Under the pieces are notes generated by a model. It did no database searches, was not told where the DNA came from, and worked only from the letters and a program-made list of their open reading frames with translations. Below are positions 1 to 33,045 of a stretch of DNA of 64,000 bases, in pieces (positions within the stretch are counted from its first letter, which is position 1; every line of letters begins with the position of its first letter). The position numbers were made by a program, and so were the translations under genes. Source of the stretch: Gammaproteobacteria bacterium (GTDB lineage Bacteria > Pseudomonadota > Gammaproteobacteria > Magnimaribacterales > D2472); NCBI GenBank assembly GCA_038142505.1, contig JAYQKD010000005.1, forward strand, positions 30,217 to 94,216. Reading direction: 5' to 3'.

Positions 1-1
1 C

Positions 2-367
2 ATAGCTTTTACCATCGTTAACTCACCATCTGAAATAGTTGAACCAGTCGAAGTCGCAGAGGCTGTTATTGAAGAACCTGTTGCAGTCATTGAAGAAATA
101 ATTGAAGAGCCTGAGCCTATATTTGTTTCAGGTTCTGAGATGGAAACCTTATGGAGTACTGCATCTCAAATAGCTAATGATTTAGACGTAGATAAGTATC
201 AAGTTATGTACGCAATCTACGAAGCTAATAAAGATTTCTTTGTAAACAATGATATCAATGCTCCAAGAGCAGATAGGAATTACTTTGTTGATCTATCCAT
301 TATTGAAACTGTTGATGTTTCTTTTGCAGCTAGTGAAGTAAAACGACATATCTTTTGTCATTGTTAA
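2..367 (+). CDS. C-terminal part of a FimV-type LysM-like peptidoglycan-binding protein (5' end outside window)
   Basis: The frame is open from base 2. An acidic repeat (IVEPVEVAEAVIEEPVAVIEE) runs into ETLWSTASQIA...YQVMYAIYEANKDFF..NDIN, which resembles the FimV N-terminal-domain signature (GDTLWxIA ... QxMxAL..NPxAF..NIN). Confidence 0.5.
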   Translation: MAFTIVNSPSEIVEPVEVAEAVIEEPVAVIEEIIEEPEPIFVSGSEMETLWSTASQIANDLDVDKYQVMYAIYEANKDFFVNNDINAPRADRNYFVDLSIIETVDVSFAASEVKRHIFCHC

Positions 368-438
368 ATTAATTTGTAACAAATCCATTTCTGACTCGTT
401 AAGAAAATAACGAAACAATTTTTTTTTAGGAGTTATAT

Positions 439-1164: not shown

Positions 1165-1206
1165 CGTTTATATATTAAAGATTAAAGAGAAAACAACAGC
1201 TTATTT

Positions 1207-1881: not shown

Positions 1882-1900
1882 AAGCTTATTGTAAAGTATT

Positions 1901-4015: not shown

Positions 4016-4471
4016 TCATTGGATATCAAGTAACTCAATATCAAAGATTAATATCGAGTTTGAGGGGATTCCTGGCCTGCCCTCATCCCCGTATGCCATG
4101 CTAGGATCAATATATACTCGCCACTTATCATTTATCTTCATAAGAGAAATAATTTTTTGGCAACCTTCAATCAGTTTAGACAATTCAATAGTGAGAGGTT
4201 CATTTGAATCAACTGAGCTCCAAAAAACAGTGCCATCTGTTAGAGTTCCATGAAAGTGGGCAGTGATGGTGTCAGAAAGTTCAGGAGATTTCGAATTCAT
4301 ATCTCCATAATTTAAAACAGCATAGTGAAGCCCTTTTTCAACAACATTAATTCCCTCTTGCTCTTGATTCTCAATGAAGAATTTCAAGTTGGCTATTTGT
4401 TTAACATTTGGACTATCTTGTACACAACCAACAAGAACCAACAAAGACATTAATGTTAAGAATCTTTTCAT
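4016..4471 (-). CDS. FKBP-type peptidyl-prolyl cis-trans isomerase, lipoprotein
   Basis: Signal LVLVGC, followed by HFHGTLTDGTVFWSS ... YGDEGRPGIPSNSILIFDIELLDI, typical of the FKBP domain. Confidence 0.85.
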   Translation of the reverse strand: MKRFLTLMSLLVLVGCVQDSPNVKQIANLKFFIENQEQEGINVVEKGLHYAVLNYGDMNSKSPELSDTITAHFHGTLTDGTVFWSSVDSNEPLTIELSKLIEGCQKIISLMKINDKWRVYIDPSMAYGDEGRPGIPSNSILIFDIELLDIQ

Positions 4472-5658
4472 TATTTAATTATGATTTTAAGGAATTTTCT
4501 TTTACCAACTTGATATATTGCATCTGAGCCTTTATCAATTTCAAGTTTAACATCAGAAATTTTTTCAGAATTTATTTTTACACCACCCTGCTTAATTAGC
4601 CTCATGGCTTCAGAAGTGCTAGCAGCCATTCCTGTATTCTTTAATAAATTTGTTAATGGAATTTTATTATTATCTATTTGAAGACTTACTTCCTCTATTT
4701 CATCTGGTAAGGTGCCTTTTTGAAATCTTTGTAAGAATGCTTCTTTACATTTAGCGCCTTCGCCTGGCTTGTGAAATCTATCTACTAATTCTTCAGCAAG
4801 GATAAATTTAACGTCTCTTGGGTTTTTGCCGTTCTGAACTTCTTTTTTTAAATCGGCTATTTCTTTTTCAGGAATAAAACTAAGCAACTCAAACCATCGC
4901 CACATTAATTCATCTGATATAGACATTATTTTTCCAAACATCTCATCGGCCTTCTCATCTATACCAATAAAATTATTTAAAGATTTAGACATCTTATTGG
5001 TGCCATCAAGACCCTCGAGTATTGGAACAGTTAAAACTACCTGTGGCTCTTGATCATAGGACCGTTGCAATTCTCTGCCAACAAGAAGGTTGAATTTTTG
5101 GTCAGTTCCTCCACACTCAACGTCAGCATTGAGGGCTACAGAATCATAACCCTGAACCAAAGGATATAAGAACTCGTGAACGGCTATGCTTTGATTAGCG
5201 TTATAGCGCTTATTAAAATCATCTCTTTCTAGCATCCTTGCTACATTATATTTTGATGCTAGACCAATTAGCCCTGCAGCTCCAAGCTTATTACACCATT
5301 CTGAATTGAAACGAACTTCTGTTAACTCTTTTTTTAAAATTTTAAAAACCTGTTTCTCATAAGTTTTAGCATTTTCTTTTAGTTCTTTCTCATCAAGAGT
5401 TGGTCTGGTTTTATTTTTACCTGAAGGATCACCTATTTGGCCAGTAAAATCTCCGATTAAAAAAATAACTTTGTGCCCTAGATCTTGAAAATGCCTAAGT
5501 TTATTAAGCAAAACTGTGTGTCCAAAATGAAGATCTGGAGCAGTTGGGTCAAAGCCTGCTTTTACGACGAGCTGCTTGCCTGATTCTAATTTTTTTAAAT
5601 CAGATTCAGTCAGTATTTCATCTGTTCCTCTCTTAATTATGGTTAAGTCTTCTTGCAT
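4471..5658 (-). CDS. tyrS: tyrosine--tRNA ligase
   Basis: HIGH-type motif (DLHFGH), KMSKS, and a C-terminal S4-like RNA-binding domain. The stop overlaps the FKBP start by 1 nt. Confidence 0.93.
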
Positions 5659-5736
5659 ATGACTATGATAGTATTTTTCGTCACTTAATAGAATGAGTAA
5701 GTTGCTACTTAATGCTTTAAGATTAAAATATTAATT

Positions 5737-8700
5737 ATGTCTTTGTCCGATAGTAAATTTATTCCTGAATCAAAAATACTTCCTAAGCTTTTAGAAGATA
5801 CTAAATTTTTAAATGATTCCTTAATTTCTAAAAATGCAGAAAAAATAATTGTTGCCTGCAGAGAAAATAAAAAAGAACGAACAAAATTAGATGCATTTTT
5901 AAGCGAGTATGGATTGGATAACCAAGAAGGTGTAGCTCTTATGTGTCTTGCAGAATCAATACTTAGAATTCCGGATAGCAAAACCAGAGATCTCATAATT
6001 TCTGAAAGATTATCTGAGGGAAAATGGATTGAACACTTGAATAAAGCAGACAGTTTATTTGTTAACGCATCAACTTGGGGACTTTTATTAGCTGGAAAGG
6101 TTGTAAAAACACCACTTGAATGGTCACAAAATCCAAATAAATTTCTTCGCTCAATAGTTTCTAAATCTGGTGAATTTCCAATAAGAAATGCTGTGATTGC
6201 AGCCATGCATATTCTTAGTCAAGAATTTGTAATGGGGCGTGATTTTAAAGATGTAAATAAAATACCAAATATCAATGAATCAATTTATTCATTTGATATG
6301 TTAGGAGAAGCTGCACGAAATCAGGAGCAAGCTAAAATTTATTATGACTCATACGAGAATGCTATCTTGGAAGTTGGCAAGCTCAATCTTACAAATGGTA
6401 ATAATAACGGGGTTTCTATTAAGATTTCTGCCCTATGTCCAAGCTACGAGACAAAAAAATATGACGATATTAAATCAAATCTAGTGCCTAGACTTATTGC
6501 TCTAACTGAGCTTGGTATGTCAAAGGATGTTGAAATAACTATTGATGCAGAAGAACAGGATCGACTTGGAGTAAGCCTTGAAATTATAAGAATCATTGCT
6601 GAATCAAAAAAAATTAAAGACTGGCCTGGCTTTGGTCTTGCATTACAGGCTTATGGCAAAAGAGCTCTTAACGCAATTGATTGGATAAAAGTAATTATTA
6701 ATAACAGGGCACCAATGCATCTTAGGTTGGTTAAAGGTGCTTATTGGGATTACGAAATAAAACATGCTCAAGTTTTTGGATATGAGGATTATTCAGTTTT
6801 TACAAAAAAATCTATTACAGATCTTTCTTATTTGGCATGTGCAAAAAAGTTATTTGAAGTTGATTCAATATATCCAAAATTCGCTACTCATAATGCTCAT
6901 ACATTATCTGCAATAAATTACTTAGGAGTAAATAAAAATTATGAATTTCAACGACTCTTTGGCATGGGAGAACTTTTATATAAATGTGCTGAAAATGTAC
7001 TAAATGATAAACATCACACTTCTATATATGCACCAATAGGCCAATATAAAGATCTGCTTCCTTATCTTGTTAGAAGGCTGCTTGAAAATGGAGCAAATAG
7101 TTCTTTTATTAATAGGCTTCTTGATCCAGAAACTGATGCAAAATGGTTGGCATCAGGACCAGATAAAAAAATTGAAAATGAAAGGAAAGATATCCCCCTT
7201 CCATGTAACATATTCACCAATAGAAAAAACTCAAAAGGATTAGATATATCTGAAATGGACAATCTTGACACTATTAAAACTGAAATTAGTAAATTTAAGA
7301 ATCAGTCCGTGAATGCTATATCTATTTATCGAAACAGAGCAGACGATGGGTCAAAAAAACATGATATCTTTTCACTTGCTGATGGTGCTTGCATTGGAAG
7401 TGTATGTTTTATGACGATCATACTCTCATCAAAGAATCGCTTGAAGCTAAAACTGATTTAAATTGGTCTAAGGTTGATGTAAAGCAAAGAGCTCAAATAT
7501 TACAAGCTATATCAAATGAACTAGAATCCAACCCTTATCAATTAATCTATTATTTGATGCACGAGGCTGGCAAGACTATTCAAAATTCTATAGATGAAAT
7601 TAGAGAAGCTGTAGATTTTTTAGATATTACTCAAATCAAATGATTGAACTAGAAGAAAAAGATGGAAAGCTTGATGGGCCCACTGGTGAAGAAAATATTC
7701 TTACTTATGGACCAAAAGGTCACATTGTTTGTATTAGTCCATGGAACTTTCCTGTTGCAATCCTTATTGGACAAATTAGTGCTGCTTTGATAACTGGAAA
7801 TAAAGTTACCGTAAAACCTTCTGAACATACTTCAATATTAGGTTTCTTAGTAGTAAATATATTTCATAAAAATGGTGTGCCTGTTGATGCACTGGAATTA
7901 ATTCTGGGTGACGGTTTATACGGTGATTTATTATCAAAATTAAATAATATTAACGGAATTGCTTTTACTGGATCTCTTCAAACAGCAAAAAAGATTCAAA
8001 CTAATCTTAATGAAAATCAGAAAGAAATATTGCCCCTTATTGCTGAAACAGGAGGTATTAATGCAATGATTGTTGATTCAAGCGCCCTTCTTGAACAGGC
8101 AACTGATGATATTGTCCGATCAGCATTTGATAGTGCCGGTCAAAGGTGCTCAGCCTTGAGGGTCTTATGCATTCAAGACGACATTTATGATGATTTATTA
8201 GAAATGGTCAAAGGCAATATGCGAGAATTAAAAATTGGTAATCCTGAAGAATTGGATACTGATATTGGTCCAATAATTAATAAACTGCAAAAGATAAACT
8301 TGATGCTTATATAAAAAAAAAAGCTAAAGCAGGTTTTCAAGTCTATCAATCAAGCTTAGAATAATGGAACAGCATATTTCACCAACGATAATTGAAATAA
8401 TCATTAAATGATTTAGATGAAGAACAATTTGGGCCAATACTTCATGTCCTTAAATTTAAATCCTCAGAAATTGATAACTTGATTCAAGATATAAATAATA
8501 CTGGATATGGTCTAACTATGGGTATTCATACAAGAATTGAATCTAGAGCAGATTTATTTAGTCAAAAGTGTAATATCGGCAATGTTTATATAAATAGAGA
8601 TATTGTTGGTGCAGTTGTTGGATCTCAGCCTTTTGGTGGCCGTGGACTATCTGGTAGTGGATTTAAAGCCGGGGGACCAAACTATTTAATACAATTCTTA

Positions 8701-8775
8701 AATGAAAAAGTTGTGTCTAAAAATTCAGTTGCATTCGGGGGCAATGCAGAACTACTTAATATTCAAGAAGACTAA
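5737..8775 (+). pseudogene. putA: bifunctional proline dehydrogenase / P5C dehydrogenase PutA, frame interrupted by several 1-nt indels (probably sequence error)
   Basis: Fragments 5737-7461, 7389-7643, 7640-8314 and 8479-8775 in different frames tile the full protein (REAVDF|RYY, ISPWNFPVAI, AETGGINA, GSQPFGGRGLSGSG). The frame is restored by adding a T to T4 7407-7410 and to T6 7616-7621. At least 2 more shifts lie in 8280-8480. Confidence 0.9.
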
Positions 8776-10021
8776 TGGTTGGTTTTAAAAAAGTTCCTAC
8801 AAATGCAGTTTTATCAATTTTTTATTATCAATTTTTTTTATTTTATTATTGTATGTTGACTTTTCAACAGATGAATCTCTTCCTGAAGAAATAATTGAAA
8901 TAACAGAAAATTTAGAAAAAAACCCTACAGATGTCTTAAGTTATAAAATTCATACAGTTAAAGATGGAGAAAATTTATCAATTATTTTTGAAGATTTTAA
9001 TGTACCTTTAAATACTGCATATAGAATTTTTAGATTAGATAACAAAAAATTACTGTCAAAAATTAAACCTGGCGACAAAATGAGATTTACCTATTTGGGA
9101 AGTGAAATAACCAATATTGAGATAGGTAAAGATAGTATTAACTCTTTATTAATTGATTTGACAGATGGAATATCCATTAAAGAGATAACAAAAGAGGTTG
9201 AGTTAGTTCGATCATTCAAAAGCGGTACCATTAAAACCTCCTTTTATGAGTCTGCTTTAGAGGCCGAAATTCCTGATAGTGTGATAATGGATTTTGCTTA
9301 TATTTTTGGGTGGGATGTTGATTTTGTATTTGATATAAGAGAGGGTGACTCATTTTTTCTTGTGTATGAGACAGCATTTTCAAATGGAGAAAAAATTGAG
9401 AATGGAGACATAGTTGTTGCAAAATTTATAAATAATGGAAATGTTTATAAAGCTAATAGATTTTTTACAGATATAAATAAAAAAGAATTTTTTGATGATA
9501 GTGGAAACAATCTTCAAAAAGCCTTCCTTAGAGCTCCTCTAGATTTTGCGTATATAAGCTCTCATTTTAATCCCAATAGAATGCATCCAGTTCTTCATAC
9601 AATAAGAGCTCATAATGGAACCGATTATGCAGCCAAAAGAGGATCTCCGGTCAGAACAACTGGAAATGGAACCATAAAATACTCTGGAAGAAGAAATGGC
9701 TGTGGTAATGAAATTGTTATTCAGCATACAAATGATTATTCAACGAGATACTGTCACCTAGATAAATTTCATTCGGGAATAAAAAAAGGTAAAAAAGTTA
9801 TTCAGGGTGAAACTATTGGTTATGTTGGTAGTACTGGTCTTGCTACTGGGCCACATCTTCACTACGAATTTAAAATAGGAAATAAACATATTGATCCAGT
9901 AAAACTTAAATTACCTTCTGCAGAGCCAATAAACATTAATCTAAAATCTGATTTTGATACACTTGTAGAAAACAATAAGATGATGTTAAAAAAATTAGAA
10001 TCCTTGTACCCCAATGAATAA
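8775..10021 (+). pseudogene. mepM: M23 murein endopeptidase (MepM/YebA-like); N-terminal anchor separated by one frameshift
   Basis: HNGTDYAA ... GSTGLATGPHLHYEF M23 motifs. ATG 8775 (TAATG overlap with the putA stop) gives MVGFKKVPTNAVLSIF. One extra T in T6 8818-8823 joins it to LLSIFFILLLYVDF of the 8849 ORF. Confidence 0.85.
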
Positions 10022-11121
10022 TTATAAGAATATATATATTGGTGCTATGTCCGGAACTAGCTATGACGCAGTTGATGTATCAATCTTAAAAATTGAAAAA
10101 GATATCACTTTGAATTTCTTTTATTCAAAACGTATTCCAAATTCAATTAAGAACCAGAATAAAAAATATTATCGAATCGGATTCGGCTTCCCTTAATGAA
10201 CTTGGGCAACTGAATAAAAAAATTGGATATTTATTTGCTCAAGCTATCAATGAATCTATTGAAAAAGCAAAATTAAAAAAGAACAAAGTTAGGTGTGTTG
10301 CCATATCAGGTCAAACTATTAGACATGATGTTATAAAACGCTAATCCATTTTCTATGCAGATTGGTGATCCAAATGTAGTCTCTAATGAGACTGGACTGA
10401 CAACCATAAGTGATTTTAGAAATATGCATATTTCTCTTGGCGGTGAAGGTGCTCCTCTGGTTCCTGAGTTTCATAACGAACTATTTCATTCATCAAGAAA
10501 ATCTAAAATAATTTTAAACATAGGCGGCATTGCAAATTATTCATATATAAAAAATAAAAATCATTTTTGGGGTCTCAGATGTTGGCCCTGGGAATGCTCT
10601 TATGGATGCTTATTGTCAAAAATATTTAAATAAGCCATTTGATAAAGATGGAAAAATTGCATCAAAAGGCAAAGTTAACTCAAGAGAACTTAGGAAGACT
10701 TGTATCGCATAAATTTTTTAAACAAAAATTTCCTAAAAGTACTGGAAAAGAGTTATTTAATTTAAATATGCTTTCAAAACAATTTCTCAAAGAGTCACCT
10801 GAAAATATATTGGCAACACTTGTTGAATTCACTGCTATATCTATAGAAAAATCTATAAAAGCTAATAGCCATACATATGATGAGTTTATAGTTTGTGGTG
10901 GTGGTGGAAAAAATAAATTTTTAATTAAGAGATTGGCTGCAATACTTGGTAATGAAGTTGTTTTATCTAATGCTTATGGATATGACATTCAAGCAATTGA
11001 ATCTATGGCTTTTGCATGGATGGGATATAAAAGAATAAACAATCAGGTTATGAAAGTTCAATTAGGAAAAAATAAATTTAATAAGGGTTTGCTCGGTTCA
11101 ATAGTTCAAGCTAAACCGTAA
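10014..11121 (+). pseudogene. anmK: anhydro-N-acetylmuramic acid kinase, frame interrupted
   Basis: Fragments 10014-10196, 10355-10633 and 10639-11121 carry IGAMSGTSYDAVD, LGGEGAPLVPEFH, NIGGIAN and VCGGGGKN, colinear with AnmK. Confidence 0.88.
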
Positions 11122-11445
11122 AAGATTCTCCGCACCCACAAGTTGTTTTAGCATTGGGATTATTTATAACAAACTTTGCGCCGGATAAGTCCTCAACAAA
11201 ATCTAAGGTTGATCCATATAAATATGGATAAGACAAAGAATCTATTAACACCTTAAAACTGCCAAAATCTATTACGTCGTCGTCAAAAGCTTGATCATCA
11301 TCAAATTTAAAACCGTACTGAAAGCCTGAGCAGCCTCCTCCAGTAACATATACTCTAAACTGTGATGCATCATCTTTGCTTAACACGCTCATAATTCTCT
11401 CGAGGCCGAGCTTGTAAGAGTTATTGAGCTATTATTTTGATTCAT
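11111..11445 (-). pseudogene. erpA: iron-sulfur cluster insertion protein ErpA (A-type carrier), one frameshift near the 5' end
   Basis: [16 protein letters not shown] ... [14 protein letters not shown]. The upstream ATG at 11445 encodes [15 protein letters not shown], which is out of frame with the 11392 ORF by one base. Confidence 0.85.
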
Positions 11446-11529
11446 ATGTCTATTATATCTAAGTTATCTGTCAAAGATTTAAATTGATAAGATAAAGTAT
11501 AATAATAAAATACAACTAAGTTTATTTTA

Positions 11530-12051
11530 ATGAAATCAACTCTTATTATTTACTCATCAACCGATGGCCAAACAAAAAATATTTGCTTAAGAATTGGTGA
11601 AACTTTGAGTAATGATGTTCCGTCAAAAATCATTTCTTTGAGCGAGGCTACAAGTAGTGATATAGAAAAATATGATCAAATAATCATCGGTGCAAGCATA
11701 AGATATGGGAAACATAAAAAAGAACTTTTTGAATTTTTAGAAACAAATCTTGCTGAACTCACAAAGAAAGATAATGCTTTTTTCTCTGTGAATGTTGTGG
11801 CAAGAAAGCCAGAAAAAAATACTCCAGAAACTAATCCGTATATGAAGAAGTTTTTATTAAAAACCTCTTGGGTTCCAAAAAAGCTTGCTGTCTTTGCAGG
11901 AAAAATTGATTACCCAAAATATAATTTTATTGATAAGCAAATGATTAGGTTTATTATGTGGATAACAAAAGGTCCAACAAATATAAAAAATACCTATGAA
12001 TTTACTGATTGGAACAAAGTTGATTCTTTTGCTAAAGAGTTAATTGCATAA
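11530..12051 (+). CDS. hemG: menaquinone-dependent protoporphyrinogen oxidase HemG (flavodoxin-like)
   Basis: Colinear with E. coli HemG over its full length (IIYSSTDGQT, IGASIRYGK, VNVVARKPEKNTPETNPY, YTDW-type C-terminus). Confidence 0.88.
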   Translation: MKSTLIIYSSTDGQTKNICLRIGETLSNDVPSKIISLSEATSSDIEKYDQIIIGASIRYGKHKKELFEFLETNLAELTKKDNAFFSVNVVARKPEKNTPETNPYMKKFLLKTSWVPKKLAVFAGKIDYPKYNFIDKQMIRFIMWITKGPTNIKNTYEFTDWNKVDSFAKELIA

Positions 12052-12104
12052 AAGAGTTATAATTGTTGGAATCAATTATAAACCCATTAAAACTATAAAT
12101 TATT

Positions 12105-13402
12105 TTGAATAAAATAGATAAATCTATAGCCCTTTTTAATCAAGCTAAGTCGCTTATGCCAGGCGGGGTCAATTCACCAGTTCGTGCTTTCAAAAACATT
12201 AATGGAAACCCTATTTTTTTTGAAAAAGCTCAAGGCGCATACCTTTTTGATGCTGATGGAAATAAATATATAGATTATATTGGATCATGGGGTCCTATGA
12301 TTATGGGGCATTCACACCCTGAAATAGTTAATGCCATTAAAAATCAAGCTGAGCTGGGTACAAGTTATGGAGCACCAACAAGTCTAGAGTCTAACGTTGC
12401 TGAGTTAATTATAAAAAATGTTCCCAGTATAGAAAAAATAAGAATGGTTAATTCAGGCACCGAGGCAACAATGAGTTCTATTAGGTTGGCTAGAGGATTT
12501 ACAAACAGAAAAAGATAATTAAATTTGATGGTTGCTATCATGGTCATGTTGATTCTCTTTAATAAAAGCAGGGTCTGGGAGTTTCAACCTTTGGCTTACC
12601 AGATTCACCAGGAATTCCAGAAGATTTAGCTAAACATACCATCACATGTCCATATAATGATATTGAAGCTTTTATAGAAATTTTTAATTAGTGTTAAAGA
12701 TGATCTTGCTGCAGTAATTGTTGAGCCTATTGCGGGTAACATGGGCTTTGTTCCAGGAACAGAAGAATTTTTACAAACACTAAGGTCATACACAGAATCC
12801 AATAACTCCCTCCTAATATTCGATGAGGTAATGAGTGGTTTTAGAGTTTCACTTGGTGGAGCTCAAGAAATCTTTAACATAAAACCTGATTTAACTGCTT
12901 TAGGAAAAGTAATTGGAGGAGGACTTCCGGTTGGAGCATTTGGTGGAAAAAAAGAAATTATGGATTTTCTTGCGCCAGAAGGCCCTGTATATCAAGCCGG
13001 AACACTTTCTGGAAATCCTCTAGCTATGGCTGCTGGGTCAACTTTATTAAATCTATTAATTGAAAAAATCCATATAAAAATTGGAAGAAAAAGCAAAGCT
13101 GATGCTTGAATGGAATGAAAGAAATTATGAGTTCTGCTGGAATTCCTTTTTCTACAAATCAAATTGGGGGAATGTTTGGATTCTTTTTTTCTGAAGAGCT
13201 TCCATTAAATATTGATGATGTTTCCAGAACAAATGATCAAACATTTTCTGCATTTATTAATGCTTGTATAAAAAATGGAATATATTTTGCGCCTTCAAAA
13301 TTCGAAGCTGGATTTATTTCTTCAACACATGGAAATATGGAAAGAAATAAAACATTTGAAGTTGTTGGCAAAATAGTTAAAACCGGAGAAATTAACAAAT
13401 GA
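12105..13402 (+). pseudogene. hemL: glutamate-1-semialdehyde 2,1-aminomutase, frame interrupted at least 4 times
   Basis: [28 protein letters not shown] | [11 protein letters not shown] (other frame) | [44 protein letters not shown]. Shifts cluster in 12500-12740 and near 13100. Confidence 0.9.
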
Positions 13403-14400
13403 AATATGATATCAGTGCTCTTGGAAATGCTCTTGTAGATACACAATATAAAGTTAGTCATGAATTTTTAGCCAGTGTGGGTCTTGAGGCTGATTCGATG
13501 ACTCTAGCTTCTGCAGAAGAGCAAGCTCCGATTATAGAAAAGTTAATAAGCATGGGTGCAGAGTCTGTTTCTGACTGTGGTGGCTCTGCTACAAATTCAT
13601 TAGTTGCTGCTGCAAACTATGGGTCAAAATGCCATCATGTTTGTCGTGTTTCAGATGATGAGGATGGTAGAAAGTATCTTGAAAGCTTAAGATCTGCTGG
13701 AGTCCATCATATAGGCATTAGTTCTGAAAACTCTGAAGTGCCAACTGGTAAATGCTTAATTTTAGTTACTCCTGATGCAAAAAGAACAATGAGTAGCATG
13801 CTAGGCGTGAGTGCATTTTTAGGTTCAGCTGATATTGATTATGAAGTTGTGGAAAATTCTAAAATATTTTACATAGAAGGTTACATGGTAACTAGTGATG
13901 ATAATTTTAATGCTGTTATATCTGTTTTAGAGCATCTTAAAAGGAAAGAATACAATTAAAGCTCTATCTTTATCTGATGCTGGAATTGTTCATGGATTTA
14001 AAGAAAATTTGATCAAATTGTTTCTTATGGTATTGATATGATTTTTTGTAATGATGATGAAGCTATAGCCTTCTCAGATGCTAATGATATTTGAAGAAGC
14101 TATAGATTTTTATAAATCTAACCCTATATGACTGTAATTACAAAAGGTGCTGAAGGAAGTGTTGTTGTAAAAGATGGCGCTGAAATTCATGCAGATGCTC
14201 AAAAAATTACACCAATAGATACTAATGGTGCTGGTGATATGTTTGCTGGTTCATTTATGCATGCCTATCTTCAAGACAATGATTTAAAAACTTGTGCAGA
14301 GTTTAGTAATTTTGCATCGTCTAAGATTGTCGAAACTTTTGGGCCTAGGTTATCTGCAGATGGATATGCAGAAGTTGCAAATAAATTAAGAAAAAGCTAG
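13399..14400 (+). pseudogene. PfkB-family adenosine kinase-like sugar/nucleoside kinase, frame interrupted
   Basis: The N-terminus (ALGNALVD) and C-terminal DTNGAGDMFAGSF motif are in the same frame. The stretch 13940-14130 is readable only by switching frames several times (IKALSLSDAGIVHGF, FDQIVSYGIDMIFCNDDEA). Confidence 0.75.
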
Positions 14401-14457
14401 CTTATTTAACGAGTTTCTGATATTTTCTCCACCTAAAATTTTATTAAATCGTAATTA

Positions 14458-15021
14458 ATGGCAAAAACTAAACAGCTACTACAAAAAAAACAGTTAAAAA
14501 AACCACTACTAAAAAAAACTGCTAGCAAAAAAAGCTCCAGCAAAAAAAGTTGTAAAAAGTTGTTACAAAAAAAACAGTAGCAAAAAAAGCGCCTCAAAAA
14601 ATTGCTAATAATAAATCTAAAATTGCGCCGTATAAATCCAAGAAAAATGAAAAATACATGAGTGCAGCCATGAAAAGACATTTTGTAGCAGTGTTATTGT
14701 TATGGAAAGAGCACTTATTAGACGAAATGCAAAAAACATTTGATCATCTTAAAGACTAAAGGCGAAACATATGCAGATCCAGTTGACAGAGCTTCTCAAG
14801 AAGAGGAGTTTGCTTTTGAATTAAGAACTAGAGATAGAGAAAGAAAACTAATTAGCAAAATAGCTGTATCTTTAGAAAAAATTAAACAAGATGACTATGG
14901 TTGGTGCGATGCATGCGGATGTGAAATAGGAATAAAGAGACTTGAAGCAAGACCTACAGCAACACATTGTATTGATTGCAAAACTCTTGATGAAATTAAA
15001 GAGAAGCAATTAAATGGTTAA
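14458..15021 (+). pseudogene. dksA: RNA polymerase-binding factor DksA with Lys/Ala/Thr-rich N-terminal extension; frame interrupted in A-runs
   Basis: IAPYKSKKNEKYMSAAMKRHF ... [27 protein letters not shown] ... C-x2-C-x17-C-x2-C zinc finger (CDACG...CIDC), colinear with E. coli DksA. The tail is encoded across three frames. An extra A lies in A3 14751-14753. Confidence 0.88.
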
Positions 15022-16282
15022 TGTTCTTTAACCCATGTGAAAAAATTTGATCGATAATACAAAAATAAGCAAATTTGCTATATCTGTTATCACAGAATTA
15101 CAAAAAAATAATTTTCAAGCATATCTAGTTGGAGGATGTGTTAGAGATGCTCTTGTCTGGTATAGAGCCAAAAGATTTTGATATTGCTACAGATGCTACG
15201 CCTGAGCAAGTTAGAAAAATATTTAAAGCTTCAAGAATTATTGGCAGGCGATTCAAACTTGTGCATGTTTTTAATAGAACAGAGCTTCTTGAAGTTGCTA
15301 CATTCAGATCTGGCAATAATGAAACTGAAGATGAGTCAAAGTTAATTAAAGATGAAAGTGGCAAAATTCTTAGAGATAATGTTTGGGGTACTTTAGATCA
15401 AGACTGTTACAGAAGAGACTTTACAATAAATGCTCTTTATTACTGTCCTATTTCAAAAAAAATAGAAGATAAAAATAATGGGTTAAGTCATATTCATAAA
15501 AAAATAATTGTGTCGATAGGAGACCCTCAATTAAGATTTGAGGAGGATCCAGTAAGAAGTCTAAGAGCTATTCGATTCAGTAATAAGCTAGGCTTTAAAA
15601 TAGATGGTCAAATTAAAAATGCTATTTATGATAAAGGCCATTTGCTATCAAGCATCTCAAATGCAAGATTGTTTGATGAATTTTGTAAAATATTTTTAGG
15701 AGGTATGGGAGAAAAAAATTTTAACAAATTATGCTCATTTAATTTAAATAAATACTTAGTTTTATCTAATCCAAATAAAAATGATTTTTCACACAATATT
15801 ATGATTCAAGCTTTAGAAATACGGATAATAGAATAAAAAACAATCAATCTGTTACTCCTGGTTTCTTATTAGCTGCTTTATTATGGCCAACATTAATTTC
15901 TAGATGTACAAAAAATAATGAAATTAACATCAGAAAGTTCTTTAGATCTATGGATGGAGTTCTCAGAGAACAACAAAAACTTACAGCTGTTCCAAGAAAA
16001 TTTAATAGTTATATAAAAGATATATGGGTTCTTCAGCTTAAACTTCATAGCAGAATTAAAAGTCAGCCATATAAAACAATAAGACATCCAAGATTCAGAG
16101 CTGCATATGATTTTCTTCTTGTAAGAGAAAAGGCAACATCTGATAAAAATGGATTGGGGAAATGGTGGACTGATTTTCAAAAAAATGATGACTCTCTCAG
16201 AGGGTCATTGATTGCAAGAATGAATGAAAAAAATGATGCAGATTCTTCTAAAATATTTGGCTTCTATAACGAGTTGAGATAA
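15021..16282 (+). pseudogene. pcnB: poly(A) polymerase I, frame interrupted
   Basis: AYLVGGCVRD | EPKDFDIATDATPEQVRKIF..RIIGRRFKLVHV ... RDFTINALYY ... | VTPGFLLAALLWP | HPRFRAAYDFLLVRE. ATG 15021 (TAATG overlap with the dksA stop) joins if A6 15040-15045 gains one A. Confidence 0.88.
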
Positions 16283-16309
16283 TCTAGAGTAAAAACAAAT
16301 ATGTAAATA

Positions 16310-16975
16310 ATGAAGCCAGCTATTAAAGAAGTTCCACTTCCTAAATATATTGCAATTGAAGGACCAATCGGAGTTGGTAAAACAACTTTAGCAAATAAAA
16401 TAGCAACCACATTTAATTATGATGCTTTTTTAGAGCAACCAGCAGAAAATCCATTTCTTAAAAATTTCTATAGAAATCCAAGTCAATCTGCTTTAGCCAC
16501 TCAGCTGTTCTTTTTATTTCAAAGAATGCAGCAAATACAAGATTTAAAACAAAGAAGTCTTTTTGAAACAGTTAGGGTTGCTGATTTTTTAATTGAAAAG
16601 GATAGATTGTTTGCTGAAGTTACTCTTTCAAATGAAGAAATGGATCTTTATGACAAGGTTTATGACCATATTACACTTGATGCACCAACCCCTGATCTAG
16701 TTATCTACCTACAAGCGCCAATAGATGTTTTAAAAGAAAGGATAACAAAAAGAGGAAACATTAATGAGCAATATTTAACATTAGAGTATCTAGAGAAACT
16801 TAATGATGCTTATTCACGATTCTTTCTTGATTATAATGATGCTCCTTTGCTTATTATTAATGCTGCTGATATAAATTTAGAGTCAAATGAAGCTGATTAT
16901 GAATCACTTATAACAACAATTATGTCAAATCCTAAAGGCAAAAATTTTATTAACCCACAACCTTCAATAATATAA
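16310..16975 (+). CDS. deoxynucleoside kinase family protein
   Basis: P-loop IAIEGPIGVGKTTLA and the overall dNK/dGK-like layout, 221 aa, intact. Confidence 0.75.
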   Translation: MKPAIKEVPLPKYIAIEGPIGVGKTTLANKIATTFNYDAFLEQPAENPFLKNFYRNPSQSALATQLFFLFQRMQQIQDLKQRSLFETVRVADFLIEKDRLFAEVTLSNEEMDLYDKVYDHITLDAPTPDLVIYLQAPIDVLKERITKRGNINEQYLTLEYLEKLNDAYSRFFLDYNDAPLLIINAADINLESNEADYESLITTIMSNPKGKNFINPQPSII

Positions 16976-16981
16976 GATTAA

Positions 16982-18910
16982 TGGCTGAAAATATTTTTTA
17001 TCCCAAAGAAGGAACTAATCCTTTTATTAAAAACCTTGATGAGTATAAAAAGCTATATAAGCAATCTATTGATAATCCAAAGAATTTTTTGGAAATCTTG
17101 CTAAAGAAAACATTCAATGGATAGAAGATTTTGATTCTGTTCACAATGGTGAATTCTCAGAAACAAAATGGTTTGAAGGTGGAAAAACTAATATTAGTGT
17201 TAATTGTATTGATAGACATCTAGAAAAAAATGCAGAAAAAACTGCCATAATTTGGGAAGGTGATAATCCAAGATGACTCTAAAGAACTATCTTATCAAGA
17301 GCTTCATGATGAAGTTTGTAAATTTGCTAATGTATTAAAAAAGGGCTTGGAGTAAAAAAAGGTTCTAGAGTATGTATTTATATGCCAATGATAGTTGAAG
17401 TTGCATATGCAATGTTGGCCTGTACAAGAATTGGGGCAATTCACTCGGTTGTCTTTGGTGGGTTTTCTCCAGAATCGCTTAAAGATAGAATTCTTGACGC
17501 TGATTGTAGAGTTGTAATTACTGCAGATGAAGGAGTAAGGGGTGGAAAATCTGTTCCTTTAAAAGGCTAATGTCGATGAAGCATTAATGGGATGTCCAAA
17601 TGTCAGCAAAACATTGGTTATTAAGAGAACTGGTAATGATATTTCGTGGGATTCAAATAGAGATGTTTGGTATGAGGATTTAGTAAAAGATGTGAGTGCT
17701 ATATGTCAGCCTGAGCCAATGGATTCGGAAGATCCTCTTTTTATACTTTATACATCAGGCTCTACTGGAAAACCAAAGGGTGTACTTCATTCAACAGCTG
17801 GGTATTTATTGGGAGCTCACATAAGTTTTAAATATCTCTTTGGAATAAAGGCTGAAGATAAATATTGGTGTACAGCTGATGTTGGTTGGATTACAGGGCA
17901 TACCTATATTTTATATGGGCCTCTTTCAAACGGTGCTACAACTTTAATGTTTGAAGGTGTTCCGACCTATCCTTCAGCATCTAGATGTTGGGAGATATGT
18001 GACAAGCATAATATTAGTATTTTTTATACTGCTCCAACTGCAATTAGAGCTTTAATGGCCCAAGGCGATGATGCTGTGACAAAGACTAAGAGAGATAGCT
18101 TAAGGATTCTTGGAACTGTGGGTGAGCCAATTAATCCAGAAGCTTGGGATTGGTATTATAGAGTTGTTGGAAAATCTAATTGTGAGGTTATAGATACTTG
18201 GTGGCAAACTGAAACTGGTTCTGTTTTGATAACTCCTATTGCTGGTGTTACTCCAACAAAACCAGGATCAGCTACACTACCCTTCTTTGGAGTTAAGCCA
18301 GAACTTTATGATGAATCTGGTAATGTATTAAAAGATGTCAATTCAGGCAATCTAGTTATAGAACAATCATGGCCAAGCCAAATTAGAAGTGTTTATGGCG
18401 ATCATGAAAGAATGATCAGCACCTATTTCAGTATGTACAAAGACATCTACTTTACCGGGGATGGGGCAAGAAGAGACGAAGATGGTTATTTTTGGATTAC
18501 TGGACGAGTTGACGATGTATTAAATGTTTCTGGTCACAGACTTGGAACAGCAGAAATTGAAAAGTGCTTTAGTACTTCATCCAAAAATTGCTGAGGCTGC
18601 AGTCGTTGGTTTTGAACACCCAATCAAGGGTCAAGGCATATATGCTTACGTTACATTAATGATTGGTGAGTCATATGTTGAAGGCTTTGATCAAGAGATA
18701 AAACAATTTGTTGCAAAAGAAATAGGTCCAATTGCAAAACCAGATCTTATTCAAAATGCATCCGGTCTTCCAAAAACTCGATCGGGAAAAATCATGCGGA
18801 GAATTCTTAGAAAAATAGCTGAAGGCGATCTATCTAATTTAGGTGATACAACGACCTTAGCAGACCCTGCTGTTGTAGAATCTTTAATAGAAAATAGGCA
18901 AACACTATGA
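16982..18910 (+). pseudogene. acs: acetyl-CoA synthetase, frame interrupted at least 4 times
   Basis: [94 protein letters not shown] | [29 protein letters not shown]. The first shift is at T6 17085-17090. Confidence 0.92.
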
Positions 18911-19278
18911 ATAAAATAATAATATTTTTATCATTACTTATAATTCAGGGTTGCTTAATTTCTCCGAAAGAGTTGGATGAATTAAATGCTGACAACAACT
19001 TTTACTCTCCTGCACAAACAATCAAATGTATGCAAATGCCATCTCCTCAGAGACCAACGCCAATAAATAAAAAGGGAGAGACAAGAGAAAGCTATGATCA
19101 AAGCGATTGTTATGATGATCTACTTACTAAAAACACGAGAGAGCTAACATTAGAATTTAAAAAATCATCAATAGAGCTTGAGAAAAAAGAAGAAAGTATT
19201 GAATTAGCTGAAAGCGCTGATGATATTGATATAGAAGCTATAGAAGAAAAAGTTCTTAAAAAAAATAAAAAAGATTAA
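18907..19278 (+). CDS. hypothetical lipoprotein with acidic C-terminus
   Basis: Signal plus lipobox (LLIIQGC). ATGA overlap with the acs stop. No recognisable domain. Confidence 0.5.
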
Positions 19279-19284
19279 TTTAAT

Positions 19285-20073
19285 TTATAAAATTCTTCTT
19301 TCTCTTTTAACTTTATTTTCTCCAATAAGTTTGATTAGGTGTGCCTCCAAGCTAAATTTGGCAATAGGATGGAGCTGTTCTGGAACATCATCATATACAT
19401 GTTTAACAAGCTCATCGATTGTATTTTTTCCAAAATCTTCAAGCTTTCTTATAGTTTTGCTTTCTCTTGCTAGTCTATGTCTGATTATTGATTGAATTGT
19501 TTTCTTTGGTTCGTGCATGAAATTTCCATGACCTGGTGCAAAAAAATCAACCTGTAGAGTTAATAAACGTTTCAAAGAATTAAGATAGTCACCCATGTTC
19601 CCATCTGGGGGACCTATGACAACAGTTGACCCATCCATAATATGATCACCAGTTATTAAACAATTTAAATTTTTTATTAAAAAGCAAAAATGATTTGATG
19701 CATGCCCGGGGGTATGGATAGCTTCCAGAATATATTCTTCTGTTTCTATTTTATCTAAATCTTTTAATACCACATCTGGAGAAAATGTTTCATCTTCCCA
19801 TGTTGAATCTCCGTCAACCAATCTTCCATACATAGGAACATTTAATATTTTTGAAATAGGCAAAGCTGCTGGAGAGTGATCGGTATGAGTATGGGTCACT
19901 ATAATTCTTTTAATGTTTCCATTACCCAATTTAATTATTTCTTCAATATGCTCTTGAATATTTGGGCCTGGATCAATCAAAGAAATATCTTTATTACCAA
20001 TTAAATAAGTATTAGTTCCCTTTCCAGTAAAAACACTTGGGTTTGGAGCAGTAATTTTTTTTATTAAATCCAT
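19285..20073 (-). CDS. MBL-fold metallo-hydrolase (LACTB2-like)
   Basis: GTNTYLIG ... IIVTHTHTDHSPAA (HxHxDH) ... HTPGHASNH ... GDH ... PGHG. Confidence 0.8.
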   Translation of the reverse strand: MDLIKKITAPNPSVFTGKGTNTYLIGNKDISLIDPGPNIQEHIEEIIKLGNGNIKRIIVTHTHTDHSPAALPISKILNVPMYGRLVDGDSTWEDETFSPDVVLKDLDKIETEEYILEAIHTPGHASNHFCFLIKNLNCLITGDHIMDGSTVVIGPPDGNMGDYLNSLKRLLTLQVDFFAPGHGNFMHEPKKTIQSIIRHRLARESKTIRKLEDFGKNTIDELVKHVYDDVPEQLHPIAKFSLEAHLIKLIGENKVKRERRIL

Positions 20074-20084
20074 TTATTTCTATT

Positions 20085-20878
20085 TTAATAATTATCATAA
20101 TCTAAATCATCAGGTAATAGTCCAATCCATCTACCTTCTTTTTTAAAAAATTTAGGTAATATTGCTGGAATATCATCATTAGTAAGTTTTGATTGATGTT
20201 CTAATAAATTTTTTCCTGAATCAAATTCTAAGCATTGTTGAAGATTTTTTATTGTAGGCATTATCATTGGCATTTCACCAGTTGATGATCTATCTAATGC
20301 TTTTTTTGGTGAGATCCATAAACTATCTGTAAGCTCTGTTCCATCATGTTTTTCAGTTTGTTTTGATGGGATATATGCTATAAAAAATCTTGTATCAAAC
20401 CTTTTGATTTCAATTTCAGGAGTAATCCAATGAGAAAAAGGTTCTATGCTATCTAAATTTAGTATAAGTTTTCTTGATCACATATTTCTTTAAGACTTAT
20501 TTGGTTCTCTATGAGCATCTTTCTATAATCATTAAACTTTTGTTTATCTAAGCCATTTAAATCAAGCTCTTCTCCATCTTTTTTTGTAGCCAGTAGAATT
20601 CCAACTTCCTCAAAACACTCTCTAACACAAGCGATCCAGTATGAGAGCCCTCCCTCATCTATTCCAAGCTTGGAAGAAGCTAATTTATCATCAAGGGTGT
20701 TACAAAAATCTTGTAAATTTTGATCTTTATCGGATTCGTCTATTTTACCACCTGGAAAAACATAAAGATTTTCAAACGGAGGTCTTTTAGACCTTTTAAC
20801 CATTAGAACTTGCAATCCTTCATTGGAATCTCTTATTAAAAGTACTGTTGCAGCTGGTACAAGCGAAAGATTGTTCAT
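20085..20878 (-). pseudogene. Nudix hydrolase with C-terminal extension, one frameshift near 20460
   Basis: Nudix box GGKIDESD...VRECFEEVGILLA in the 20459-20878 ORF. The downstream frame continues NLDSIEPFSHWITPEIEIKRFDTRFFIAYIP...GEMPMIMPT to 20085. Confidence 0.75.
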
Positions 20879-20910
20879 AATTTGTGTTTTATTAGCTTAG
20901 AATACTGTCT

Positions 20911-21783
20911 ATGAATATAACTAACAATCTAAAAGATGACATTCTTCATGCCCCTGATTGGTTTCATCAAGCCATTCAAGACAAACCTGAGGATAAAATA
21001 TTTGAACATAAGTTGGGAAATCGTTTCATATTCTCAAAATGGGCAACTAGCTCTGCTAATAAAAACCTAATTGTTTATTGCATGGTGGTGGAGCTCACAA
21101 AAAATGGTGGGATCCAATTGGGCCGCAACTAATCGAAAATTGGAAACATAATAGCTATAGATTTGCCTGGAATGGGTTTCTCTGAGTTTTAGAAAAAATA
21201 TAAAATTATAGATTTTGGAAATTGTTACAGAAATAATCGAAAAAGAAAAATCAGACCATGGATTAGAGACCGTTAACATAGTTGGGCATTCTCTTGGAGG
21301 TCATGTAGCAGGATATATTGCAACAGAAAGAAAAGATTTAATTACTAATGTCATTATTATTGATACCTTCATAAGACCTCCAGACTATGATCCCTTCAAA
21401 GCATACTGGCCTCTTAGAATGATTAGATATTATCCTGATAAAAATACTATTCTTAACAGATTCCGATTAATGCCAAGTCAAGAGTGTTTGAATGATTGGT
21501 ATGTGAGATATATTGCTGAATACTCTATTAAAGAGACTAAAGATGGTTGGAGGTGGTGTTTTGATGATTTGTATTTACAAGTCTTGAAAGGCTTTTTGAG
21601 ATATCATTTTCATTTTCTTGTCCTGCGCTTTTTGTTCATGGTGCTAATAGTTTGCTTAACAAGTCTGGTTATTTTTTAGAAAATGTTAAAAATATGTATC
21701 AAATATTATGGAATTTTGAAGAAATACCAGGTGCTGCTCATCATGTCCCACTAGATAAACCTATTGAATTATTAAGCTTATAA
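20911..21783 (+). pseudogene. alpha/beta-fold hydrolase, frame interrupted several times
   Basis: HGGGAHKKWW (frame switch), nucleophile elbow VGHSLGGHVAGYIA, and a C-terminal FVHGANS...IPGAAHHVPLDKP readable in another frame. Confidence 0.7.
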
Positions 21784-21897
21784 AGGAAAGATGTAGGTTA
21801 TTTTAAATTTTTATGAATTATTTTTACTTTTTCTTTTTTTCTTTTTTTATCCCTACTTTTATATATTAAGCCACTAATTGTTCATATATGTAAAAAG

Positions 21898-23181
21898 GTG
21901 GATAGCGCTGAAAACCTAAATGTATTGGGGGGTCTTACATTTTTAATAGGTATGGCAATGGTAATATTTTCTATAAATTCCGATTGGGCAGAAAGACTTT
22001 GGATTCTTCTTACTTTAATACTAGGCATTCTTTTATGTATTAGAGGTTTGATAGTTATATTTTTCTTCGAAAAAATAAAAAAAATTCTTCCAATTTATCT
22101 AAATCATTATTACAAATTTAGCATTCCAATATCTATAGCAATGATATCTTTGGCATTCTTTGTAGTTACTACTGATTACATTGGGCCTCAAAAAGATATA
22201 AGCGAATGTAAATCAGATAAGGCTATTTCTGTAATATGCGGGTTTTCAAATCCAGAAGATATTGTAGTTACTCCCGATAATAAATATCTTTTAATTTCTG
22301 AGTTCGGCGGTATTCGTCCATATGATTCAACTAAATCAGGAGGGTTTGCGCTATTGAGATTATCTGATAACAAAATAATCACACCAAAAATTTCTTTTGG
22401 TAAAAATATCTGGGGCGAAGATTCTTGCAAGCAAAATGAGATATTTGGCCCGCATGGTATAGATCTTGTTCAAAGGGAGGATGGCAGTTACCAGCTTGGC
22501 GTTATAAACCATTATCCTGGTGAAACTATAGAGATGTTTGAGTTAGTTCAAAAGTCTGAGCAGGATACATGGTCATTTGTCTGGAGAGGTTGTATTGAGG
22601 TTCCAGAAAAATACTATCTTAATGATATTGCCTTAAAAAAAGATGGCACCTTTTATGTATCCCATATGTATTCAAGAGATATTACTATGACAAAGTGGCT
22701 AATAACCGCTCTACTTAAAAAAGATTCTGGTGTCATCCTTGAGTGGAATAAAGATAGTTTTATAGAGATTCCAAACTCTGAAGGTAGTGGTCCAAATGGT
22801 ATAACTTTCAATGAATCAACTAATAATTTATTTATAAGTTACAACCAAGGAGATCGAGTTGTGAAATTTGATCTATCAGACAATAAAAAACTTCAAACTT
22901 TTAAAGTAGAGTCTCCAGATAATATTTACATAAATAAAGATTCTGTTTGGCTCACATCATTAGATTTTCAGCCAAACGATGCAGGAGACTGTATTGAAAG
23001 ACCCGCATGCTCTTTGCCTTTTTCTATTTATGAAATAGATAGAGAAACTTTTGTTCTCAAAAATGAAAATTCTTTTAATAAAACTGTTTTTGGCCTCCCA
23101 ACAATAGCTGTTCCAATTGAAAATACTATCTTCATGGGGTCCTTCCATTCAGACAGGCTTGGCTACTTCACTCAAAAGTAA
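21898..23181 (+). CDS. membrane-anchored beta-propeller protein, paraoxonase/arylesterase (SGL/PON)-like
   Basis: GTG start, hydrophobic N-terminal segments, then GPHGIDLV..LGVINHYPGETIEMFEL...LNDIAL..DGTFYVSH, resembling the PON/arylesterase fold pattern. Confidence 0.55.
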   Translation: MDSAENLNVLGGLTFLIGMAMVIFSINSDWAERLWILLTLILGILLCIRGLIVIFFFEKIKKILPIYLNHYYKFSIPISIAMISLAFFVVTTDYIGPQKDISECKSDKAISVICGFSNPEDIVVTPDNKYLLISEFGGIRPYDSTKSGGFALLRLSDNKIITPKISFGKNIWGEDSCKQNEIFGPHGIDLVQREDGSYQLGVINHYPGETIEMFELVQKSEQDTWSFVWRGCIEVPEKYYLNDIALKKDGTFYVSHMYSRDITMTKWLITALLKKDSGVILEWNKDSFIEIPNSEGSGPNGITFNESTNNLFISYNQGDRVVKFDLSDNKKLQTFKVESPDNIYINKDSVWLTSLDFQPNDAGDCIERPACSLPFSIYEIDRETFVLKNENSFNKTVFGLPTIAVPIENTIFMGSFHSDRLGYFTQK

Positions 23182-33026: not shown

Positions 33027-33045
33027 TATATAAAATATATATATT

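Follow-up and report, generated by a model that had tools for sequence, protein, structure and literature searches.

In 2019, Watson and Warr reportedly drew attention to indel errors that fragment genes in long-read assemblies. Such gene-fragmenting errors are documented for assemblies of Nanopore and PacBio CLR reads and for metagenome-assembled genomes (Kastor, PMC12007338; Sereika et al., 2022, PMC9262707). Inter-genome chimeric and strain-collapsed contigs form a second class of comparable records; among these, chimeras arising in De Bruijn graphs switch between genomes within shared k-mers, with no added indels. A third system is provided by Buchnera and Blochmannia, whose reduced genomes are rich in pseudogenes and display transcriptional slippage at poly(A) tracts.

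The stretch of DNA considered here (the window, 64,000 nucleotides) belongs to a marine SAR86 gammaproteobacterium with an AT-rich (32% GC), streamlined genome. Its indels resemble those of long-read assemblies in that they comprise 1–2 bases, are private to this assembly and disrupt genes that are otherwise conserved. Such indels recur at low frequency over the length of the contig (8 of the private frameshifting kind in the compared right stretch of about 34 kb, 22.25–56.6 kb), and indels of the same type occur in contigs L108, L114 and L122, which derive from Nanopore reads and Racon/Pilon polishing. Unlike typical long-read errors, however, they lack the usual homopolymer bias and are concentrated in one 14-kb zone, which is a mosaic of two species. 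This brings the window close to chimeric or collapsed contigs: its flanks correspond to different species from the same samples, its middle zone carries mixed alleles with almost no private substitutions, as a consensus should, and natural genomes are of one type across the locus. In contrast to De Bruijn-graph chimeras, the switches in the window come with indels, which argues for pile-up or POA consensus calling or polishing rather than for a changed graph path. With Buchnera and Blochmannia the window shares its AT-richness and the conservation of frameshifted genes at the protein level; unlike in these endosymbionts, its indels lie outside long A/T tracts, are absent in relatives and are restricted to the chimeric zone, and the organism belongs to a free-living planktonic lineage whose relatives keep all of the genes intact.

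Based on these sequence comparisons, we consider it probable (roughly 0.87) that the contig is a chimera of two co-occurring SAR86 species, and that the block of broken genes is a collapsed, mis-polished metagenome consensus rather than biology. The broken genes would accordingly be assembly artefacts and not pseudogenes.

Extent and content of the indel block

The window was aligned to about 30 natural relatives (MAFFT alignments of 8, then of 21 related sequences), and indels were counted if they were private to the window and of a length that is not a multiple of 3. The labels X and A denote two SAR86 species, which share the same gene order and 70–95% identity across the locus; clade B is a further clade among the relatives.

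The original prediction of a dense block of frameshifts is borne out by this count, which yields 54 private frameshifting indels with the 21 relatives and 50 in an independent alignment of 8 genome loci. All of the genes that it had named as broken (putA, mepM, anmK, erpA, hemL, the adenosine-kinase-like gene, dksA, pcnB, acs, the Nudix gene and the alpha/beta hydrolase) do carry shifts. The block and its genes are as follows:

7407–21834, unstranded: indel block, 54 private indels of 1–2 bases, about 3.7 per kb (MAFFT against 8, then 21 relatives)
5737–8775, plus strand: putA (proline dehydrogenase / P5C dehydrogenase), 5 indels (7407, 7619, 8281, 8362, 8400)
8775–10021, plus strand: M23 peptidase (mepM-like), 1 indel (8821); intact at 415–417 aa in relatives
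10014–11121, plus strand: anmK, 4 insertions (10145, 10335, 10574, 10693); intact at 367 aa in relatives
11111–11445, minus strand: Fe-S carrier of the erpA/iscA family, 1 deletion (11401)
11530–12051, plus strand: flavodoxin-family gene, intact; protein identical to that of clade X (100%)
12105–13399, plus strand: hemL (class-III aminotransferase), 7 indels (12511, 12559, 12577, 12688, 13066, 13075, 13111)
13399–14400, plus strand: pfkB-family (adenosine-kinase-like) gene, 4 indels (13945, 14003, 14089, 14116)
14458–15021, plus strand: dksA, 5 indels (14471, 14509, 14525, 14558, 14755)
15047–16282, plus strand: pcnB (poly(A) polymerase), 2 indels (15156, 15814)
16310–16975, plus strand: deoxynucleoside kinase, intact
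16981–18910, plus strand: acs (acetyl-CoA synthetase), 5 indels (17084, 17273, 17343, 17565, 18560)
19285–20073, minus strand: MBL-fold hydrolase, 1 insertion (19299) close to its 3′ end; an A-to-X junction lies inside it at about 19897
20085–20878, minus strand: Nudix-family gene, 1 deletion (20465)
20911–21800, plus strand: alpha/beta hydrolase, 14–15 indels, the densest part of the block

The two hot spots that had been pointed out are real, one in hemL (12511 to 12688) and one comprising all four indels of the pfkB-family gene. The indel in the MBL-fold hydrolase had been missed, as had the two-species mosaic of the block. No private frameshifting indel was found at 1.5–7.4 kb in the alignment with relatives, and indel density in the 14-kb zone is about 16–19 times that of the remaining compared window. 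About 20 relatives from short-read or single-cell data show 0–3 such indels apiece; the long-read contig L108 shows 10. Comparison with sister genomes, which the original prediction had proposed, finds the orthologous genes intact and the frameshifts absent: contigs of X and of A carry all 15 block genes in intact form. In relatives, PutA has 1013 aa with the Pfam domains Pro_dh and Aldedh, and the erpA/iscA-family protein comprises 111 aa in clades X and B and 125 aa in the clade A genome L004. In the public collection, 90 blocks contain the exact flavodoxin-family protein. Exact look-ups of four further proteins of the window (deoxynucleoside kinase, peptidase S9, TyrS and MetK) returned no match.

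The fragments had been described as well-conserved protein with no other decay, and this holds true. Frame-corrected proteins are 88–100% identical to the X or A parent and nearly stop-free, with 0–3 stops per gene, every one of them adjoining closely spaced indels. In those columns of the first alignment that are identical among its eight relatives, private substitutions at 9–21 kb amount to 0–0.8% in most of the block, versus 1–11% in real genomes. In a three-taxon comparison the private branch of the window is 2%, versus 7–9% for the other two. With private substitutions close to zero, the block is not of raw-read quality, and a model of raw long-read errors was hence rejected. No periodicity of 100–1000 bases, such as polishing in windows of fixed size could cause, was seen in the indel positions.

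Two species along the window

A first ancestry painting relied on two clades of the genome collection, A and B, whose representatives do not include species X. The final painting was redone with X contigs, at 1831 sites that separate X from A, and divides the window as follows:

1–7406, unstranded: left flank of species-X type, clean; peptidase S9, FKBP, tyrS and the 5′ part of putA
8100–22245, unstranded: X/A mosaic zone
22245–56600, unstranded: right flank of species-A type, 97–100% identical to L081, L115, L119, L121, L122 and L132–L138

The left flank is 96–99% identical to natural clade-X contigs (L083–L092, L103–L112) and only 76–86% identical to clade A and B genomes, with the A allele at 3.4% of informative sites. 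The right flank is only 75–96% identical to clade X (L113, L120). Natural X contigs remain X over 1.5–22 kb and 17.7–38 kb, and from 3.4 to 38 kb the A genome L004/L117 belongs to clade A, save for a clade-B-like stretch at 10–12 kb. Among the approximately 30 natural contigs compared, none is of X type in the left flank and of A type in the right flank.

Between the flanks, the sequence changes from X to A alleles or back at intervals ranging from a few tens to hundreds of bases. The zone is X with A patches at 8.1–13 kb, about 50:50 at 13–16.4 kb, mostly A at 16.4–19.88 kb, and, between 19.88 and about 22.0 kb, once more X interspersed with A patches; the fraction of A alleles in these successive segments is 25%, 49%, 86% and 22%, versus 0–14% in natural X contigs. 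A runs test on the mosaic alleles (z = −6 to −8) indicates that the mosaic consists of tracts and not of single sites.

The indels cluster at the switch points. Flanking sites of discordant ancestry enclose 32 of the 54 indels, versus 14.6 ± 3.3 expected; under a stricter rule of two concordant sites per side, 15 indels lie at switches versus 4.5 expected, and the enrichment also holds with three concordant sites per side. Once the informative site closest to the indel is left out on both sides, the enrichment weakens (9 indels versus 6.3 expected, P = 0.17), which may suggest that part of it stems from local misalignment around indels. Region by region, indel density tracks switch density, which reaches its maximum of 55 per kb in the alpha/beta hydrolase region. 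In hemL, a species-A tract at 12510–12680 has the indels 12511 and 12688 as its borders.

Both species occur together in single samples: ERZ23491155 contains L093 (A) and L105 (X), and the sample north_1 contains contig_8003 (X) and contig_8000 (A). One A|X junction, a 57-mer at 19871–19927, was searched exactly against public metagenome contigs with 0 matches; a degenerate pattern of the junction returned four pure-X and four pure-A contigs from public metagenomes, and no recombinant.

It is conceivable that the mosaic itself is real, namely a rare hybrid formed by homologous recombination between X and A (identity about 80–90%) with short import tracts, and that only the indels are polishing errors, left behind where reads of the pure parents polished the rare hybrid badly. 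Kilobase-scale mosaicism does exist at this locus among SAR86 single-cell genomes (L004 versus L003: 76–79% identity at 10–12 kb, 92–98% elsewhere), so some of the coarse X/A switches could be genuine recombination. The X contigs L105 and L110 likewise carry 5–14% A alleles in parts of the region. However, tracts of tens of bases with the switch density given above are far finer than natural mosaicism on the kilobase scale, the X-left/A-right combination is missing from natural contigs and the searched junction from public metagenomes, and the indels are clustered at switches. Hence, we regard a natural recombinant as very unlikely.

Proposed origin of the block and consequences for the record

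For a chimeric contig with a mis-polished consensus, the following course of events may be proposed. During assembly, a left arm of X type would have been fused to a right arm of A type, and over the approximately 14 kb between the arms, reads of the two species would both have entered the consensus, at calling or at polishing. A mixed-species consensus of this kind would lead to the observed alternation of X and A alleles. The 1–2-base indels may have been introduced, or left uncorrected, where the read populations of X and A conflict.

As to the technology, the most likely source appears to be noisy long reads of Nanopore type, assembled and then polished with Racon or Pilon, because errors of this type occur in contigs obtained from the same species by that route. 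Contigs with the name ending _pilon are the product of metaFlye, Racon and Pilon (PMC13558084). Among those compared here, L108 has 10 one-base indels, L114 has 10 within 18.1–20.7 kb, and L122 has 3. The insertion at 13945 in the pfkB-family gene is common to the window and L108.

At least 12 housekeeping genes would be annotated as pseudogenes from this record. The original prediction had warned that a pseudogene count would be misleading, and rightly so, as the record itself is in error. With two species mixed in one contig, not only pseudogene counts but also estimates of completeness and ANI, pangenome calls and inferences about recombination would be wrong. More generally, clustered indels in a genome derived from a metagenome can be a sign of a chimeric zone of mixed populations, and not only of low coverage. 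Such zones are detectable without reads, by private indels together with near-zero private substitutions and alternating ancestry relative to natural relatives.

Run length and the possibility of genuine frameshifts

The original prediction had attributed the breaks to a record error and not to biology, which agrees with our reading, and more specifically to flow-chemistry homopolymer miscalls at low coverage, which does not, for lack of any dependence on run length. Under that explanation the contig would be the genuine genome of a single organism, with a low-coverage stretch affected by 454, Ion Torrent or similar run-length miscalls. Such miscalls would fit with indels that are private and run in both directions, as had been stated (21 deletions and 20 insertions among 41 single-base events), with otherwise well-conserved proteins, and with a few events in short runs (T2 to T4 at 7407, T7 to T6 at 17084, T6 to T7 at 21834). 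The claim that most breaks lie in mononucleotide runs did not survive: runs of at least 4 hold 5 of the 41 single-base events (12%), versus a background of 13%, and in 13 of the 21 single-base deletions (62%) a lone base is lost. No rise of indel probability with homopolymer length was found among the block indels, and most runs of at least 8 in the block are without an indel (A10 at 8313, T8 at 12214, A8 at 15455, A8 at 19258, T8 at 20055). Of six sites listed in the original prediction, five have a real indel no more than a few bases away; there is none at A6 15040–15045, and the shift in pcnB lies at about 15156. Miscalls also leave the two-species mosaic, the differing flanks and the near absence of private substitutions unexplained. 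The run-length table thus largely refutes this explanation, which we rejected as less probable still than a natural recombinant. Taken together, the original observation is partly confirmed and its interpretation partly supported.

The least probable explanation, and in our view a barely credible one, is that the frameshifts are real, with the 14-kb segment eroding or expressed, like genes of AT-rich endosymbionts, via slippage in transcription or on the ribosome: the AT-rich, streamlined genome and the conserved frame-corrected reading frames would agree with this, but no frameshift is common to any relative, nonsense and private substitutions are all but absent beside the 54 indels, and the boundaries are sharp and coincide with the chimeric zone. 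A free-living cell whose genome is streamlined is unlikely to be able to lose hemL, acs, dksA and pcnB all together, which also counts against real frameshifts. Slippage had already been ranked as less likely, and the position of the indels outside the long poly(A)/poly(T) tracts that it would need is in line with this ranking; among the block indels, no frameshift was found inside an A/T run of about 9 or more, and only one event, that at 21834, is located in a run of 6–7. Genome erosion was rejected, as the inactivating mutations are neither common to relatives nor joined by substitutions, stops and deletions. Programmed ribosomal frameshifting is likewise disfavoured by up to 15 shifts per gene with none conserved in orthologues, versus the single conserved slippery site that would be expected in each gene.

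A tRNA scan of the window found none, and the sole match of an Rfam scan is a 6S RNA at 32262–32435. A second cluster of split genes is present at 56.5–61.5 kb, near the right end of the window.

Gene breakage and its sequence context

A search with a pfkB-like gene fragment, using one genome per species, returned 80 loci, the majority titled SAR86 cluster and the others unclassified gammaproteobacterial MAGs, with top protein identities of 91–97%. The window, which has a GC content of 30–36% along its entire length, is therefore a SAR86 contig. Its ORF map is fragmented at 5.7–22 kb and displays mostly long contiguous ORFs in the remainder. Among single-cell genomes, the best locus (L004) runs collinear to window 3410–23966, and its genes, all intact, are listed below.

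Intact genes of the single-cell genome locus L004, with the number of indels in the respective gene of the window
putA: 1013 aa; 5 indels
M23 peptidase (mepM-like): 416 aa; 1 indel
anmK: 367 aa; 4 indels
erpA-family gene: 1 indel
flavodoxin-family gene: 173 aa; unbroken
hemL: 432 aa; 7 indels
pfkB kinase: 333 aa; 4 indels
dksA: 187 aa; 5 indels
pcnB: 411 aa; 2 indels
deoxynucleoside kinase: 221 aa; unbroken
acs: 641 aa; 5 indels
small lipoprotein: unbroken
MBL-fold hydrolase: 265 aa; 1 indel
Nudix protein: 264 aa; 1 indel
alpha/beta hydrolase: 293 aa; 14–15 indels

A MAFFT alignment with 8 related genome loci displays 50 window-private indels of a length that is not a multiple of 3, confined to 7410–21834, versus 0–3 private indels of this kind in each relative. 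When the alignment covers 21 relatives, some of them natural contigs of the window's species that were built from short reads, there are 54 private frameshifting indels at 7407–21834 (the block) and none at 1.5–7.4 kb. To the right of the block, further alignments add 7 at 22.25–38 kb and 1 at 38–56.6 kb. The indel density is about 3.7 per kb in the block versus about 0.2 per kb elsewhere. Once the indels are removed, the translations are 88–100% identical to the parental proteins, and internal stops are almost absent. The core of the original prediction, namely that genes are broken in a dense indel block, is thus correct. Within the clean left flank, tyrS carries a private in-frame 3-base deletion at 5590 (395 aa versus 396 aa in relatives).

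The proposed association of these indels with homopolymers is not supported. Single-base private events number 41 (21 deletions and 20 insertions); a lone base is removed in 13 of the deletions and created by 7 of the insertions. Runs of at least 4 bases hold 5 events (12%), which is background, as 13% of the block bases lie in such runs. No indel is found in the long runs A10 at 8313, T8 at 12214, A8 at 15455, A8 at 19258 and T8 at 20055. Five of the six sites originally listed do have a true indel a few bases away at most, but A6 at 15040–15045 is without one, and some indels near the listed sites are deletions of a C within a T run, with no change in run length.

Ancestry mosaic of two SAR86 clades

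Natural contigs of two kinds were gathered by exact-protein look-ups. Clade X (L083–L092 and L103–L112), mostly short-read assemblies from several projects, displays 96–99% identity to window 1–8 kb. Clade A (L081, L093–L095, the single-cell genomes L003, L004 and L006, and L115–L122) displays 98–100% identity from about 22,245 on, to 38 kb and beyond. Across the locus, X and A are 70–95% identical to each other; they are distinct species-level lineages. Both are found together in samples. Contigs of natural origin spanning the locus are of a single type throughout (X at 1.5–22 kb and 17.7–38 kb, A at 3.4–38 kb), and the window is of type X on the left and type A on the right. Divergence between X and A is greatest in the DUF5916 gene region at window 32000–35300 (75–78% identity), which is also variable inside clade A (92–97% identity to the window); this may be a fast-evolving surface-protein gene.

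At positions distinguishing X from A, the share of A alleles in the window is 3.4% at 3.4–7.4 kb, 25% at 7.4–13 kb, 49% at 13–16.4 kb, 86% at 16.4–19.9 kb and 22% at 19.9–22.07 kb, and from about 22.25 kb the window is essentially pure clade A. The same share is 0–14% in natural X contigs. The alternating tracts range in length from some tens of bases up to about 170 (runs test, z = −6 to −8). Strong candidate junctions, in addition to the one at 19871–19927 discussed below, are located at 8167–8212, 13665–13731 and 21919–21957. At 9–21 kb, in those columns of the first alignment for which the eight relatives are unanimous, the window deviates at 0–0.8%, versus 1–11% for real genomes. When three taxa are compared, the branch leading to the window is 2%, versus 7–9% for the other two. 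Such a short branch is impossible on a clock-like tree and is predicted for the consensus of a mixture.

Between neighbouring informative sites of differing ancestry lie 32 of the 54 indels, versus 14.6 ± 3.3 for random block positions. The excess is retained if two concordant sites are required on each side (15 versus 4.5, P < 0.001) or three (7 versus 2.3, P = 0.01). It fades when the closest informative site to the left and to the right is left out (9 versus 6.3, P = 0.17), and local misalignment around the indels may therefore contribute. Regionally, indel density tracks switch density: it is zero in the pure flanks adjoining the block, 0.9 per kb at 17.6–19.9 kb, where the sequence is nearly pure A, and 2.7–7.2 per kb in mixed stretches. 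Several A tracts are flanked by indels, such as 12510–12680 between the indels at 12511 and 12688.

Likely origin of the artefact and alternative readings

The contig is very probably chimeric between X and A, the broken genes being an artefact of assembly. In a noisy long-read metagenome assembly, the two species would have been collapsed across the locus, and consensus or polishing would have drawn on both read populations. We infer such a collapse, and with it a noisy long-read platform as the probable source, because X and A co-occur, because contigs with names ending in _pilon share the type of defect, and because the background of isolated indels in the window fits.

The _pilon contigs among the relatives derive from a Great Barrier Reef study, in which Nanopore reads were assembled with metaFlye and polished by Racon, Pilon and again Racon, and which states that strain heterogeneity of SAR86 is high (PMC13558084). 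They display the same defect type in the same genes as the window. One of them (L108, north_1__contig_8003_pilon) has 10 private 1-base indels, with putA, anmK, pfkB, dksA, acs, MBL and Nudix split, and the insertion at 13945 is common to it and the window. Another (L114, 13124_4__contig_8823_pilon) has 10 at the equivalent of window 18.1–20.7 kb, and L122 has 3; short-read contigs have no such private 1-base indels. In L114 and L108, which come from another project, the indels are concentrated in the acs–lipoprotein–MBL–Nudix stretch; this locus may tend to be mis-polished in general when SAR86 populations are mixed. The isolated window-private indels of 1–2 bases in the clean A part, none of them within a long homopolymer, form a low background compatible with a polished long-read contig:

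24807: amiC, split
27579/27631: priA, 5′ end shortened
32895/32905: isolated indels
33191/33600: DUF5916 gene, split
42259: lnt, split

A real recombinant backbone is unlikely. Natural mosaicism on the kb scale does exist in single-cell genomes. At the equivalent of window 10000–12000, the clade A genomes L004 and L003 are only 76–79% identical, versus 92–98% elsewhere, and L004 is similar to a further SAR86 clade (B), which looks like natural exchange between SAR86 lineages. However, a pattern with as many as 55 switches per kb and with indels at these points is unlike the traces of recombination. A single junction was searched in public metagenome contigs (19871–19927, 26 bases of A followed by 31 of X): it had no exact match, and a degenerate pattern allowing either parent at each variable site retrieved 8 contigs, of which 4 are pure X, 4 are pure A and 0 are recombinant.

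Plain homopolymer miscalling leaves both the mosaic and the sequence context of the indels unexplained; the original prediction was right that the error is in the record, but not in its mechanism. That the frameshifts are real pseudogenes or reflect slippage-dependent expression is very unlikely, given that zero frameshifts are common to relatives, other signs of decay are absent, the indels lie outside long A/T tracts, one gene has up to 15 shifts, and the block boundaries match the chimeric zone. There is no new biology in the block. The record should be handled as chimeric, and a pseudogene annotation is not warranted for genes at 7.4–21.8 kb.

Other features of the window and its relatives

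Split genes also form a smaller second cluster towards the right-hand end of the window, at 55762–61892 (Pfam assignments):

55762–56517 and 56618–57754, minus strand: pieces of transketolase (Pfam)
59111–59602 and 59590–60021: S-adenosylhomocysteine hydrolase, at least two pieces (Pfam for these two), with 60192–60503 probably a third
60653–61435 and 61386–61892: pieces of lysA (Pfam)

Many genes are also split in a public contig of 376 kb (L116/L133; JGI 3300046170, Ga0494229_00250), almost exclusively by 1-base insertions: these number 12 at 19–32.4 kb and account for 10 of the 11 indels at 36–56 kb. Its gene set is different downstream of zapA, starting at the position that corresponds to window 32.4 kb. 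Errors and variable islands are probably a separate problem in this contig. The window has an ordinary 6S RNA (RF00013, 60.7 bits) with zapA on one side and the 5-formyltetrahydrofolate cyclo-ligase gene on the other:

32262–32435: 6S RNA
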